Sequence record: OR544955
Strand: one strand, 5' to 3'
DNA: 64,000 nt
DNA from: Escherichia phage vB_EcoP_EP32B
The notes beneath the pieces are model-generated. The model was not told the origin of the DNA, did no database searches, and saw only the letters and a list, made by a program, of their open reading frames with translations. A program made the translations under genes and the position numbers. Positions 4,782-41,370 of the stretch are shown one piece after another. The stretch's first letter is position 1. Every line of letters starts with the position of its first letter.

Positions 4782-5356
4782 TATTCGCATGTGCTCCGAC
4801 TAAAACAGTTGATGATAAACTGGAATATGCTTTTGGATTAGGTGATGGACTTCCATGGAAGCATATCAAACAAGATATGAGTAACTTTGTTGCTCGCACT
4901 AAAAACACTGTAATGGTTATGGGTGCTAAGACTTTTGCATCATTACCTCGTCTACTCCCAGATCGTACTCATGTGGTTGTCACTGATATGGCCAGAAAAC
5001 TGCCTAGGACTAAAACTGATGAACTTGCACGGTTCTATATCACCCAATCTGAATTTATTACCTTGGTAACAGGTGGTGAAATTAACCTGTTTAGCCCTGC
5101 GTCCGACGTACCGTTTAAACTTTCTACTGAACATGTTGATGTCTCGGTTATTGGCGGTCCAGCTCTGTTGAAACAAGCACTGCCTTATGCCGATGAAATC
5201 GTGATGACTAAAATCATTAAGAAATGTCGTGTTAATTCCGATGTTCAACTTGATAAAGATTTCGTCCAAGATATTATGCTTCAACGTTCTATGGTAGAAT
5301 CTCATTACTACAGAATCGATGAACTCACCGAAATTACTGAGAGCGTTTATAAATGA
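4769..5356 (+). CDS. frd: Dihydrofolate reductase
   Basis: 195 aa (T4 193 aa); N-terminus [30 protein letters not shown] and C-terminus ...ITESVYK match T4 DHFR; stop overlaps td start. Confidence 0.88.
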
Positions 5357-6196
5357 AACAATACCAATACCTGATTAAAGATATCTTAGAAAATGGCTAC
5401 GAAACAGACGACCGTACAGGTACCGGCACTATTGCCCTGTTCGGAACTAAATTACGTTGGGACCTGACTAAAGGATTCCCTGCAGTAACAACTAAGAAAT
5501 TAGCATGGAAAGCTTGTATTGCCGAGTTACTGTGGTTCATGTCTGGTTCTACCAATGTTAATGATTTGCGTATTCGTACTCATGGTAGTCTTATTCAAGG
5601 TAAAACTATTTGGGACGACAACTATGAAAATCAGGCAAAAGACCTTGGATATCATAGCGGCGAACTTGGTCCTATTTATGGTAAGCAATGGCGTGATTTC
5701 GGTGGTGTAGACCAATTAATTGAAACAATCGACCGTATTAAAAAATTACCAACTGATCGTCGTCAAATTGTTTCTGCCTGGAATCCGGCCGAAATAAATC
5801 AAATGGCTCTTCCTCCTTGCCATATGTTCTATCAGTTCAATGTGCGTAATGGTCATCTTGATTTATGTTGATGTTTTCTTGGGTCTGCCATTCAACATTG
5901 CCTCGTACGCTGCCTTGACTCATATTGTAGCTAAGATGTGTAACCTTATCCCAGGTGATTTAGTGTTCTCAGGCGGCAACACGCATATCTACAGCAATCA
6001 TGTAGAACAATGCAAAGAAGTTCTTCGTCGTGAACCTAAAGAGTTATGTTCTCTTGAAATTAATTGGCCTAGTAATTTTGAGAATTGGCCTACAAAAATC
6101 CAAATGGACTGGGTTACCGGAACGATGACATATTCTGATTTCGTTCTTAAAAATTACGAATCACACCCAACTATCAAAGCTAAAATGGCGGTATAA
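5353..6196 (+). pseudogene. td: Thymidylate synthase gene, intronless, broken by a frameshifting deletion near 5865/5866
   Basis: ORF 5353..5871 ends ...LPPCHMFYQFNVRNGHLDLC*; ORF 5840..6196 in another frame continues VDVFLGLPFNIASY...KAKMAV. Conserved QWYQRS-type segment between them is missing (about 17 nt). Confidence 0.85.
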
Positions 6197-6451
6197 ATGA
6201 TTTTACGTTTTATTAATTCATATGGCACCACAATTTTTGAAATGAAAAATCCAAGTGAACTGGATATCCCTTCACCGAATAGTGAAATCACAGTTAAAGG
6301 TGAACGATTCATTTGCTATTCACACGAACGAATTTATGAATATCGTGAATTTTGTGGTGGTTACGGTATAGAAAAAGAACCGTTGGTTTATTTCGATATC
6401 ACAGTCTTGACACCTAAAGAATACGAAGAAATTATTGCTGAGGATAATTAA
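6197..6451 (+). CDS. Hypothetical early protein (nrdA.x position)
   Basis: 84-aa ORF between td and nrdA on the sense strand. Confidence 0.5.
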   Translation: MILRFINSYGTTIFEMKNPSELDIPSPNSEITVKGERFICYSHERIYEYREFCGGYGIEKEPLVYFDITVLTPKEYEEIIAEDN

Positions 6452-6538
6452 CGCTTCAGTTTAAAAGTGTATAATAAATTAACGGGATAAATACTATCCC
6501 GTTTGGAGTAATGTCTATCAACCTATACCGAGGACTAT

Positions 6539-8794
6539 ATGCAAGTAACTAAGAGCAGTGGTGTATCCCAAAATTTTGATGCACAGAAAATTATTCAAGT
6601 CTTAACTTGGCAATGTGAAGGAACACAAATTGACCCATATGAATTGTACGAAGAAATTAAGACCCATCTTGTCGATGGGATGAGCACCAAAGATATTCAG
6701 AAGATTTGTATTAAAGTTGCGGCTAACTCGATTTCTGTCGAAGAACCTGATTATCAGTATGTCGCCGCTAAAGGATTAATGTTTGCACTTCGTAAAGATG
6801 TATACGGACAGTTTGAACCACCTGCTTTTATCGACCATATTTCTTACTGTGTTAATGAAGGCAAATACGACCCCGAGCTGTTGTCTCAATATTCAGCAGA
6901 AGAAATCATTTATCTTGATTCTCGGATTAAACACGAACGAGATTTTGACCTGACTTATGCTGGTGCTATGCAGCTTAAAGAAAAATATCTAGTTAAAGAT
7001 AAAACAACTGGGAAGATTTATGAAACTCCACAGTTTGCTATCATGGCTATTGGCATGGCCTTACATCAAGACGAAACTCGTGACCGTTTGAAACATATTA
7101 TTCGTTTTTATGATGCCGTTTCTACTCATCAAGTTTCATTGCCTACCCCAATTATGGCAGGTGCTCGTACTCCGACTCGCCAGTTCTCTAGTTGTGTAGT
7201 TATTGAAGCCGGTGATTCGTTAAAATCTATTAACAAAACTTCAGCATCAATTATTGAATATATTTCTAAACGAGCTGGTATTGGTATCAACGTTGGTATG
7301 CTTCGTGCAGAAGGTTCTAAGATCGGTATGGGTGAAGTTCGACATACGGGTGTTATTCCATTCTGGAAACATTTCCAAACTGCAGTAAAATCTTGTTCTC
7401 AAGGTGGTATTCGTGGTGGTGCTGCTACAGCGTATTATCCGATGTGGCACTTAGAAGTAGAGAACCTATTAGTTCTGAAAAATAACAAAGGCGTGGATGA
7501 AAACCGTATTCGACATATGGACTACGGAATTCAGATTAATGACCTTATGATGGAACGCCTTGGTAAAAATGATTATATTACTTTATTTAGCCCTCACGAA
7601 ATGTCAGGCGAACTATACTACTCGTTCTTTGAAGATCAAGATAAATTCCGTGAGCTTTATGAGAAAGCTGAAAAAGACCCGACAATCAGAAAGAAAAGAA
7701 TCAAAGCACTAGAACTCTTTGAATTGTTCATGACTGAACGTTCTGGCACTGCTCGAATTTATCCACAATTCGTTGATAACACGAATAACTACACTCCGTT
7801 TATTCGTGAAAAAGCTCCAATTCGTCAGAGTAACTTATGTTGTGAAATCGCTATTCCGACTAATGATGTGAATGGCCCTGATGCTGAAATTGGTTTATGC
7901 ACATTATCTGCTTTTGTATTAGATAAATTTGATTGGCAAGACCAAGATAAAATTAATGAACTTGCTGAAGTACAAGTACGTGCACTTGATAACCTGTTAG
8001 ACTATCAAGATTATCCGGTTCCAGAAGCTTTAAAAGCCAAAAAGCGTCGAAACCTCGGTGTCGGTGTGACGAACTATGCCGCATGGTTAGCTTCTAACTT
8101 TGCTTCATATGAAGACGCTAACGATTTGACTCATGAATTGTTTGAGAGATTGCAATATGGCCTTATCAAAGCTTCAATCAAACTCGCCAAAGAAAAAGGA
8201 CCTTGCGAGTATTATTCAGACACTAAATGGTCTCGAGGCGAATTACCTATCGACTGGTACAATAAAAAGATTGACCAAATCGCAGCCCCGAACTACGTCT
8301 GTGACTGGGAAGAACTTCGAGCTGAACTCAAAGAACATGGAATTCGTAACTCAACATTGTCTGCACTTATGCCATGTGAATCAAGCAGCCAGGTTTCTAA
8401 CTCTACAAACGGGATTGAACCGCCGCGTGGTCCAGTAAGTATTAAAGAATCTAAAGAAGGCAACTTCCGTCAGGTTGTTCCTAATATAGAACATAACATG
8501 AGTCTTTACGACTACGCGTGGAAACTTGCTAAGAAAGGTAATAAACCTTATTTGACCCAAGTTGCTATCATGTTGAAATGGGTGTGCCAATCTGCTTCTG
8601 CTAATACTTACTATGACCCTGCGGTATTTGAGAAAGGTAAAGTACCAATGTCAGTAATGCTTGACGATCTACTTTACTTCTGGTACTTTGGTGGAAAAAA
8701 TCTCTACTATCATAACACTCGTGATGGGTCAGGTACAGATGACTATGAATTAGAAACACCTAAAGCTGAAGATTGTTCTGCTTGTAAGCTTTAA
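6539..8794 (+). CDS. nrdA: Ribonucleoside-diphosphate reductase large subunit
   Basis: 751 aa (T4 754); RNR active-site region ...RQSNLCCEIAIP... and C-terminal Cys pair (CSACKL). Confidence 0.93.
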   Translation: MQVTKSSGVSQNFDAQKIIQVLTWQCEGTQIDPYELYEEIKTHLVDGMSTKDIQKICIKVAANSISVEEPDYQYVAAKGLMFALRKDVYGQFEPPAFIDHISYCVNEGKYDPELLSQYSAEEIIYLDSRIKHERDFDLTYAGAMQLKEKYLVKDKTTGKIYETPQFAIMAIGMALHQDETRDRLKHIIRFYDAVSTHQVSLPTPIMAGARTPTRQFSSCVVIEAGDSLKSINKTSASIIEYISKRAGIGINVGMLRAEGSKIGMGEVRHTGVIPFWKHFQTAVKSCSQGGIRGGAATAYYPMWHLEVENLLVLKNNKGVDENRIRHMDYGIQINDLMMERLGKNDYITLFSPHEMSGELYYSFFEDQDKFRELYEKAEKDPTIRKKRIKALELFELFMTERSGTARIYPQFVDNTNNYTPFIREKAPIRQSNLCCEIAIPTNDVNGPDAEIGLCTLSAFVLDKFDWQDQDKINELAEVQVRALDNLLDYQDYPVPEALKAKKRRNLGVGVTNYAAWLASNFASYEDANDLTHELFERLQYGLIKASIKLAKEKGPCEYYSDTKWSRGELPIDWYNKKIDQIAAPNYVCDWEELRAELKEHGIRNSTLSALMPCESSSQVSNSTNGIEPPRGPVSIKESKEGNFRQVVPNIEHNMSLYDYAWKLAKKGNKPYLTQVAIMLKWVCQSASANTYYDPAVFEKGKVPMSVMLDDLLYFWYFGGKNLYYHNTRDGSGTDDYELETPKAEDCSACKL

Positions 8795-8847
8795 GACTTT
8801 TTATTATAATTTACTCATGGATGAGTTAAACTAAGTGAGAAAATATA

Positions 8848-40999: not shown

Positions 41000-41026
41000 T
41001 GCATTTTTTCCTTATGTGATATAGAT

Positions 41027-41034
41027 TATTTATA
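41027..41034 (-). promoter_or_regulatory. Late promoter for gene 24
   Basis: Minus-strand TATAAATA 28 nt upstream of gene 24 start. Confidence 0.65.
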
Positions 41035-41040
41035 AAGATT

Positions 41041-41070
41041 GTTTACAACGTATTTGGTATGTGATACTAT
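41041..41070 (+). promoter_or_regulatory. T4-type early promoter for ORF 41101..41370
   Basis: GTTTAC 41041-41046; TGATACTATAGAC -10 region (same module as 18351/18794). Confidence 0.55.
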
Positions 41071-41100
41071 AGACTTATCAACTACAGAGGAGTAAACAAA

Positions 41101-41370
41101 ATGACTAAAGCACGTTTCTTACGAGATACTTTAAAAGTTCTGGAAGCTGAAGCAGTTAAGTTAGTAGAAAAATATGGTGCAAAAGTTAATGGTAATGCCT
41201 TCAACAAAGTATGGATGAAAGTTGATTCTGAAGCTCGAGCTAAAGGTTATTGGGCCACTGATAAACTTGCATCATTCAAAAACAAAGACGGTTCTCCAGC
41301 ATATATCCAAGAAGGTATGCCTAATTGGCAAAATATTTTGAAAACTTACATCAAAATTGCACAGAAATAA
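41101..41370 (+). CDS. Hypothetical protein on the early-sense strand between genes 24 and 23
   Basis: 89-aa ORF with its own early-type promoter (41041-41070) and RBS GGAG. Confidence 0.5.
   Translation: MTKARFLRDTLKVLEAEAVKLVEKYGAKVNGNAFNKVWMKVDSEARAKGYWATDKLASFKNKDGSPAYIQEGMPNWQNILKTYIKIAQK

Follow-up and report, generated by a model that had tools for sequence, protein, structure and literature searches.

T4 carries introns and homing endonuclease genes (HEGs) at a series of loci, and the question raised by the window, the 64,000-nucleotide stretch of Escherichia phage vB_EcoP_EP32B DNA (OR544955) analysed here, is whether such elements occupy the same loci in a T4 relative and, if they do not, whether they were lost or never arrived. 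The window was found to derive from a Mosigvirus (RB69-type) relative of T4, with about 98% identity across its whole length; the nearest relative, E. coli O157 typing phage 3 (TP3), is about 98% identical, and comparison with TP3, TP6, ST0 and RB69 gave 97–98% identity across 20–25 kb with conserved gene order. All six T4 HEG loci in the window, namely segG, the td intron with I-TevI, mobE, the nrdB intron with I-TevIII, segE and segD, are empty. Spacers of 19–59 bp or unbroken exons are found at these loci, and the gene 23/24 spacer holds an 89-aa open reading frame (ORF) instead. A preliminary description of this DNA had claimed that introns and HEGs are absent from the T4 loci, and homology, profile and colinearity evidence confirmed that claim.

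When all 15 T4 HEG proteins, together with denA and gp49, were compared with the window by tblastn, denA was the sole match (E 8e-76), all other matches having E values of at least 0.01; the I-TevI, mob-like and I-TevIII proteins of phage JM17 gave no match to the window. Custom hidden Markov models (HMMs) for GIY-YIG and HNH were run with filters off on all 1240 six-frame segments of at least 25 aa. The top match over all six frames had an E value of 0.035 and lacked the catalytic motifs, and the best match of the HNH model was at E 0.63. ORF 12970–13290, a marginal GIY-YIG candidate at E 0.035, aligned through a lysine- and alanine-rich helical stretch only and was rejected, the GIY and YIG motifs being missing and the Pfam result blank. 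A 24-residue MobC-like match (E 0.011) within gene 9 (minus strand, 60365–60436) was taken as chance. Among the stop-to-stop segments of at least 50 aa, 288 of 358 were judged by synteny to be colinear with non-HEG T4 DNA, and a Pfam scan of the remaining 70 returned no HNH, GIY-YIG or LAGLIDADG family. In a positive control, Pfam recognised seven of nine known HEGs, including I-TevI, SegD, SegE and the Seg protein of PNJ-9; SegG and truncated I-TevIII were missed, and both types are covered by the direct homology search alone. Neither a GIY-YIG HEG of the Seg/I-Tev type (by tblastn, six-frame HMM and Pfam, denA excepted) nor an HNH HEG of the Mob/I-TevIII type (by tblastn, HNH HMM and Pfam) was detected in the window. 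An Rfam group I intron model found nothing in the window, and these negatives carry no weight because the model also missed the real introns in the T4 and JM17 loci.

The single GIY-YIG protein of the window is denA (endonuclease II; 9971–10381, plus strand), which scored 28.1 bits with PF01541, above the curated threshold of 22.6 (E 2.5e-6). It is 78% identical to T4 DenA and lies in the same place after nrdB, with no notable difference. DenA, which breaks down the DNA of the host, is a GIY-YIG nuclease with a housekeeping role and is not mobile. The profile searches for HNH, GIY-YIG and LAGLIDADG families that had been proposed as a check thus bear out the view of denA as the only such protein, with tblastn, HMM and Pfam in agreement; the degenerate HEG or intron remnant that had been named as contrary evidence was not seen, no residual HEG similarity being left in any frame.

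At the free-standing loci, the boundaries of the T4 inserts were set by blastn against T4 and are exact for each T4-specific insert. In the gene 59/gene 32 spacer (3293–3408, plus strand), segG (T4 148544–147926) is represented by 39 bp (3291–3329), and SegG gave nothing in tblastn; the preliminary description had drawn its range at 5353–41370, and this locus falls outside it. Farther along, nrdA (6539–8794, plus strand) is intact, encoding 751 aa, and is followed by the nrdA/nrdB spacer (8795–8847, plus strand), where 59 bp (8788–8846; blastn against T4) stand in the place of mobE plus nrdB.1 and MobE found nothing by tblastn. The uvsW/inh spacer (35886–35935) has 19 bp (35880–35898; blastn against T4) at the segE site, again with no tblastn match to SegE, and the site just after pseT (14358–14417, plus strand) is empty. 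The gene 24/gene 23 spacer (41000–41422), located by blastn at the T4 segD position, has 326 bp (41049–41374) that contain ORF 41101–41370 on the plus strand, encoding the 89-aa conserved hypothetical protein phrog_6003. This ORF runs antisense to its neighbours, genes 23 and 24, which is also the orientation of segD in T4; neither Pfam nor the custom HMMs found a nuclease domain in it. About 120 Mosigvirus genomes have it at 95–100% conservation, and about 98 genomes from outside the genus have it at about 35%; it is intact in the window, whereas two short ORFs are annotated in the RB69 record. For this locus the earlier account was right that segD is absent, yet the spacer is not empty, since the genus-conserved ORF is present.

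The two intron-bearing genes of T4 are continuous in the window. In td (thymidylate synthase; 5353–6196, plus strand), a group I intron of about 1 kb after ...TTCTTGGGT is absent and the exons abut at 5884|5885, the site that in T4 and JM17 holds about 1017 nt. Alignment across the junction showed contiguous exons, colinear with spliced T4 td and with intronless relatives. The intronless state of td had thus been described correctly, but the junction CTTGGGTCTGCC had been placed at 5879–5890, and its actual position is 5878–5889. The flanks of the insertion site read CTGCCATTC, as in PNJ-9 and UKE1, which are intronless; T4, JM17, a20 and AV110, which carry the intron, read CT(A/G)CCGTT there. 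Similarly, nrdB (8848–9944, plus strand) has no group I intron of 0.6–1.1 kb after about nt 662–664 (T4 numbering). Its insertion site lies at 9439–9442, positions 9439 and 9442 aligning with T4 139058 and 138457, and the gene is colinear with spliced T4 nrdB and with intronless relatives; JM17 and a20 hold about 1.1 kb at the equivalent site. The flanks of the nrdB site match those of intronless TP3 at 56 of 60 and 59 of 60 positions, and the tract just upstream of the site (9357–9439) shares only 88–89% identity with JM17 and a20, both of which carry the intron.

Mobile elements of these kinds do occur in the genus. JM17, a20, AV110, F27 and PNJ-9 are Mosigvirus phages with introns of the T-even type in td and nrdB, and with free-standing HEGs. 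As a group, they have flanks 94–98% identical to the window and identical insertion sites, and differ from it in carrying I-TevI in a td intron, I-TevIII in an nrdB intron, a mob-like HNH gene within nrdA or a seg-like gene after pseT. The mob-like gene of JM17 lies within nrdA at the equivalent of window 7875–7907, and the seg-like GIY-YIG gene of PNJ-9, of 240 aa, lies just after pseT. I-TevI of the Mosigvirus td intron has 89% protein identity to T4 I-TevI, and the Mosigvirus nrdB intron, with full-length I-TevIII, has 97% DNA identity to the intron of Tequatrovirus RB3. These introns occupy exactly the sites that are empty in the window, with diverged flanking exon tracts. Relatives carry elements at the same sites, and therefore the alleles of the window are uninvaded homing sites. 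Exact protein look-ups found no record of the truncated Td or of NrdA, and RnlA led only to relatives, 93–98% identical, in which td and nrdB are intact.

The absence of the elements, the colinearity with T4, the existence of carriers among the relatives and the intronless-type flanks together make it highly probable that this Mosigvirus segment is in an uninvaded state at every T4 HEG locus and that the elements never entered the alleles of its lineage. Such a state would account for the compact 59/32, nrdA/nrdB and uvsW/inh spacers, the continuous td and nrdB and the genus-specific ORF between genes 23 and 24, with no loss within the window. The sites are polymorphic within Mosigvirus, a minority of relatives having gained the introns of td (with I-TevI) and nrdB (with I-TevIII) as well as mob-like or seg-like genes. 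RB69, of the same genus, with about 97% identity and the gene order of the window, likewise has compact 59/32, nrdA/nrdB and uvsW/inh spacers and intronless td and nrdB, and was tabulated with zero HEGs (Petrov et al. 2010, Table 5, PMC2993671). In 18 of the 25 best relatives there is no extra DNA across the region, and the HEG-free condition here, found in about 70% of close relatives, is the majority state of Mosigvirus. The HEG- and intron-free condition of RB69-type phages has already been published and is usual for the genus. The missing HEGs are the genus norm and are therefore no statistical surprise; HEG-free RB69-type genomes have been known since 2010 and most sequenced Mosigvirus are alike, and the absence is of little importance in itself. 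What the window offers is a set of clean empty-site alleles that can be compared with intron-carrying relatives of the same genus.

One caveat attaches to this explanation: the source sequence is damaged, and whatever process lost sequence could in principle have removed an insertion too. The insertion sites of td and nrdB each have a deletion close by. Relative to TP3 (NC_041863), the window shows 16 deletions, with junctions at 3572, 3837, 4764, 5865, 9356, 12128, 17951, 20197, 22124, 23289, 25447, 33840, 39717, 42448, 44235 and 53224, but not one insertion of at least 5 bp, about 1.4 kb being deleted out of 64 kb, whereas natural relatives show 0–5 indels per 10–37 kb compared; RB69 lacks these 16 gene-breaking deletions. 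The essential genes 32, 30, 23 and 21 are broken by them, microhomology, a sign of natural deletion or assembly collapse, was not found at the junctions, and divergence among relatives is 2–3 times higher in the deleted patches than in randomly placed ones (permutation p 0.01, <0.0002 and 0.055). Running in one direction only, the deletions have the look of an artefact of assembly or sequence, and no pseudogene or HEG scar should be inferred from the gene-breaking deletions before the raw data are checked. A lossy genome build, such as a reference-guided consensus from which uncovered positions are left out, could have dropped real introns and HEGs along with the 16 patches, and all these features of the deletions point in that direction, as does the location of two of them, one 20 nt upstream of the td insertion site and the other 83 nt upstream of that in nrdB. 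We nevertheless regard such a technical absence as unlikely: the bases flanking both insertion sites belong to the intronless haplotype and not to the co-converted haplotype of the carriers, the four free-standing HEG loci have a spacer layout identical to that of RB69 and TP3, and about seven in ten close relatives are truly HEG-free here. Less probable again, to the point of being extremely doubtful, is that HEGs and introns were once present and were later deleted with degenerate remnants left behind. HEG decay is seen in T4 itself (truncated I-TevIII, mobA), and the antisense orientation of the 23/24 ORF recalls segD; however, spacers of 19–59 bp are too small for remnants, HEG similarity is nil in every frame, the ORF has its own distribution across the genus and beyond with no nuclease domain, and co-conversion tracts are absent from the exon flanks.

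The deletions had also given rise to the speculation that the lesions in td, nrdB and gene 32 sit at endonuclease target sites, which would make them scars or escape alleles of cleavage by I-TevI, MobE or I-TevIII, and SegG in a HEG-free recipient. Of the three sites compared, all in td and nrdB, this was supported at one, namely td for I-TevI, and not at nrdB for either MobE or I-TevIII. In td, a 17-bp deletion with its junction at 5865|5866 causes a frameshift and spans −36 to −20 relative to the insertion site. I-TevI cuts td at −23/−25 (PMC2988022), and the deletion takes out the CNNNG cleavage motif together with these cut positions; relatives that carry I-TevI are present in the same genus. 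In nrdB, a 78–79-bp deletion at 9356|9357 removes gene nt 510–588, but MobE nicks nrdB at nt 122–126 (PMC2790892), and the equivalent of the nick site (8969–8973) is intact. The zone near the intron insertion site in which I-TevIII cuts (within 25 bp) is also missed, with 83 nt between the deletion and the insertion site downstream of it. In gene 32 the deleted parts are nt 165–232 and nt 498–711 of the Mosigvirus gene. Together, the lesions in these three genes make up only 3–4 of the 16 deletions, while twelve similar ones strike genes not known to hold a HEG target, the essential 30, 23 and 21 among them, and such a set would be impossible in a viable phage. With 4–5 candidate sites and the deleted fraction given above, one overlap is expected by chance in about 10% of cases. 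T4-type phages repair breaks via recombination and not by end joining, which also counts against cleavage scars, as does the lack of junction microhomology. Cleavage scars are thus a very unlikely account of the three lesions, and there is similarly little prospect, at best a slight one, that the td deletion taken singly is a real natural allele lacking the I-TevI motif, either a scar left by imprecise repair or an allele that escapes cleavage at the price of td function. I-TevI-carrying phages circulate in Mosigvirus.

If the window does represent uninvaded alleles, as seems highly probable, its possible role as a recipient can be considered. The preliminary description saw in it a natural recipient for T4 homing and marker exclusion, and this stands indirectly, introns being found at the same sites in other Mosigvirus, but not readily with T4 as the donor. 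T4 as donor is doubtful because RB69 was reported to exclude T4, T4 × RB69 recombinants never having been recovered (PMC2993671). The T-even-type introns in Mosigvirus show that intron flow between the two genera does occur despite this exclusion. T2 offers a parallel: its td and nrdB are intronless, segG, mobE and related genes are absent, its homing sites are uncut, and it is the HEG-poor recipient in T4 × T2 marker exclusion (PMC2988022, PMC2790892). T2 differs in belonging to Tequatrovirus and in recombining freely with T4, in contrast to the reported behaviour of RB69-type phages (PMC2993671). A more plausible donor to the window would be a second Mosigvirus phage, for instance JM17, and the window alleles would be expected to undergo cleavage and conversion if a relative with these introns infected the same cell.

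By megablast, the window falls in the genus Mosigvirus, the RB69-type relatives of T4, with 97.9-98.3% identity to its closest relative, E. coli O157 typing phage 3 (TP3, NC_041863), and about 97% to RB69. Both phages are colinear with the window, which keeps the TP3 coordinate frame across the first 3.5 kb. On the plus strand, rnh, dsbA, 33, 59, 32, frd, td, nrdA, nrdB, denA, rnlA, alc and pseT are followed by a gene for DAHP synthase, cd, 31, rIII, 30 and alt; then come 54 to 51 (minus), 26, 25 and uvsY (plus), uvsW (minus), inh, hoc and rnlB (plus), 24 (minus), a small ORF (plus) and 23 to 7 (minus). 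The DAHP synthase gene (w15456-16448, w denoting window positions; 330 aa; Pfam DAHP_synth_1, E 5e-75), which lies between the pseT and cd clusters, has no T4 counterpart and is typical of Mosigvirus. Six homing-endonuclease gene (HEG) loci of T4 fall within the window: segG (59/32), the td intron with I-TevI, mobE (nrdA/nrdB), the nrdB intron with I-TevIII, segE (inh/uvsW) and segD (23/24). With insert boundaries set by DNA alignment to T4, we found 39 bp in place of segG, 59 bp in place of mobE and nrdB.1, 19 bp in place of segE and 326 bp in place of segD. The same alignment showed that the td exons abut between w5884 and w5885 and the nrdB exons at w9439-9442, and hence both genes are intronless, as the preliminary description had proposed; the td junction string is present at 5878-5889, one base off the position first assigned to it.

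Searches for endonuclease genes gave a concordant picture. When all 15 T4 HEG proteins, DenA and gp49 were compared with the window by tblastn, denA was the sole match (E 8e-76; the rest E >= 0.01), and HEGs of JM17, an element-carrying Mosigvirus phage, matched nothing in the window. GIY-YIG and HNH profiles made from T4, JM17 and PNJ-9 proteins, run with filters off over all 1240 six-frame segments of at least 25 aa, returned a lowest E-value of 0.035. That value belongs to ORF 12970-13290 (107 aa, Mosigvirus-specific, phrog_2364), which was rejected as a GIY-YIG protein: the alignment is confined to a helical stretch rich in lysine and alanine, and neither the GIY nor the YIG motif is present. 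Among 358 stop-to-stop segments of at least 50 aa, 288 align colinearly with T4 DNA, none of them in T4 HEG intervals, and the remaining 70 matched ten Pfam families with no nuclease family among them. When Pfam was tried on 9 known HEGs as a control, it recovered 7, missing SegG and the truncated T4 I-TevIII, and so for these two types the evidence comes from the direct homology searches. The claim that denA is the only GIY-YIG protein was likewise upheld: its Pfam GIY-YIG score exceeds the curated cutoff, and neither profiles nor Pfam detected another. Rfam matched nothing in the window; it also matched nothing on T4 and JM17 loci with real td and nrdB introns, and this negative was therefore given no weight. 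That Rfam at its gathering threshold misses such well-known group I introns and their JM17 counterparts is likely due to interruption of the RNA structure by endonuclease ORFs; its negatives are therefore uninformative for introns carrying a HEG.

The segD position is occupied by an 89-aa plus-strand ORF (41101-41370; phrog_6003, function unknown), antisense to its neighbours, as is segD in T4. It was considered as a HEG remnant and rejected: it lacks a nuclease domain and does not resemble Seg proteins (tblastn with T4 HEGs, custom profiles). It is 95-100% conserved in about 120 Mosigvirus genomes, and distant homologues (about 35% identity) occur in about 98 genomes from other T4-like genera. 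We interpret it as a small, stable gene. The RB69 record annotates its counterpart as two short ORFs, whereas the window ORF is intact.

The bases adjoining the insertion sites argue that the absence of introns is real, since they are of the intronless type. At the td site the window reads ...GTTGATGTTTTCTTGGGT / CTGCCATTC, as do TP3, PNJ-9 and UKE1, all without the intron; every intron carrier has ...GTAGAT... / CT(A/G)CCGTT. Beside the nrdB site, the window and intronless TP3 agree at 56/60 and 59/60 positions. The exon-1 tract has diverged in nrdB intron carriers: JM17 shares only 38/58 and 26/59 positions with TP3 across alignment columns 481-600, and 50/57 where the intron inserts. Over w9357-9439, JM17 and a20 show 88-89% identity to the window. 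Such divergence of exon tracts beside insertion sites resembles co-conversion. The window sites are genuine empty homing sites.

RB69 has been listed without HEGs (Petrov et al. 2010, PMC2993671), and therefore the observation was already published for such phages; the HEG- and intron-free state is ordinary for the genus. In the current database, HEG and intron content is polymorphic within Mosigvirus. JM17 (L008) carries a td intron (903-1919) with an I-TevI 89% identical in protein to that of T4, and an nrdB intron (6466-7564) with full-length I-TevIII; the td intron is also present in a20, AV110 and F27, and the nrdB intron in a20. PNJ-9 has a seg-like gene directly after pseT. In JM17, a 236-aa mob-like HNH gene (L008 3912-4846, equivalent to w7875-7907; 45-51% protein identity to T4 MobE and MobB) splits nrdA into two ORFs, an arrangement reminiscent of Aeromonas phage Aeh1 with its split nrdA. 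Extra DNA of at least 0.2 kb was found in 7 of the best 25 matches to w5000-25000 and in none of the best 12 to w25001-50000. The window carries the empty form at every site occupied in JM17, a20, AV110, F27 and PNJ-9. At the DNA level, the nrdB intron regions of JM17 and Tequatrovirus RB3 share 97% identity, against only about 75-80% for Mosigvirus versus T4 exons, and the td intron region of carriers reaches 95% to TuIa and about 82% to T4. Together with the diverged exon tracts, these identities imply intron transfer between Mosigvirus and Tequatrovirus, even though RB69 is reported to exclude T4, with no T4/RB69 recombinants seen (PMC2993671). The proposal that the window is a natural recipient for T4 homing thus stands in part: its homing sites are empty and other Mosigvirus genomes have demonstrably acquired introns of the T-even type, but T4 is an unlikely donor.

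The preliminary description further speculated that the td, nrdB and gene 32 lesions sit at endonuclease targets. The 17-bp td deletion (between w5865 and w5866) removes CAATGGTACCAGAGAAG in the TP3 reading, at positions -36 to -20 relative to the insertion site, taking out the CNNNG motif and the I-TevI cut positions -23/-25 (PMC2988022) and sparing the primary binding region. The three other sites compared were missed. In nrdB, nt 510-588 of the gene are deleted; MobE nicks at nt 122-126 (PMC2790892), and the equivalent w8969-8973 is intact; enzymes encoded by introns cleave no more than 25 bp from the point of insertion (PMC2988022), which here lies 83 nt downstream of the nrdB deletion; and the inh/uvsW spacer, the SegE target (PMC2330249), is undamaged. 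Codon 42 of nrdB is AAA (Lys) and precedes the conserved FFWRPEE block; in the published mobE-less phages it is AAG. With about 1.4 kb deleted of 64 kb, a given site has about a 2% chance of being covered, and at least one of 4-5 candidates about 10%. One of four testable sites was covered; the td overlap is probably a coincidence, and beyond it the speculation is not supported. The observation of the preliminary description is therefore confirmed with small corrections, and its interpretation partly supported.

Comparison with TP3 shows, in the window, 16 deletions of at least 5 bp (6, 15, 17, 28, 34, 34, 36, 50, 58, 68, 73, 79, 102, 214, 247 and about 320 bp) and no such insertion, with junctions at w3572, 3837, 4764, 5865, 9356, 12128, 17951, 20197, 22124, 23289, 25447, 33840, 39717, 42448, 44235 and 53224; natural relatives show 0-5 indels of this size over 10-37 kb, mostly HEG insertions. 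Genes 32 (twice), td, nrdB, pseT.3, rIII, 30.4, ligase, alt.1, uvsY.-1, 23 and 21 are broken. A phage with genes 32, 30, 23 and 21 broken is non-viable, and we therefore rejected HEG-connected biology for the set, which looks like a sequence-production or assembly artefact or a defective template or genome. None of the deletions is shared with any database genome among the relatives compared, and of 15 junctions examined, 12 have no microhomology and 3 just 1-2 bp. The deletions fall in patches where relatives differ from one another more than they do at randomly placed positions (permutation p 0.01, <0.0002 and 0.055).

Two 45-bp stretches, w41062-41106 and w12908-12952, have matches of about 87% identity in unrelated intergenic regions of T4, 65350-65393 (denV/ipII) and 7175-7219 (upstream of motB), and may be promoter or terminator elements common to both phages.
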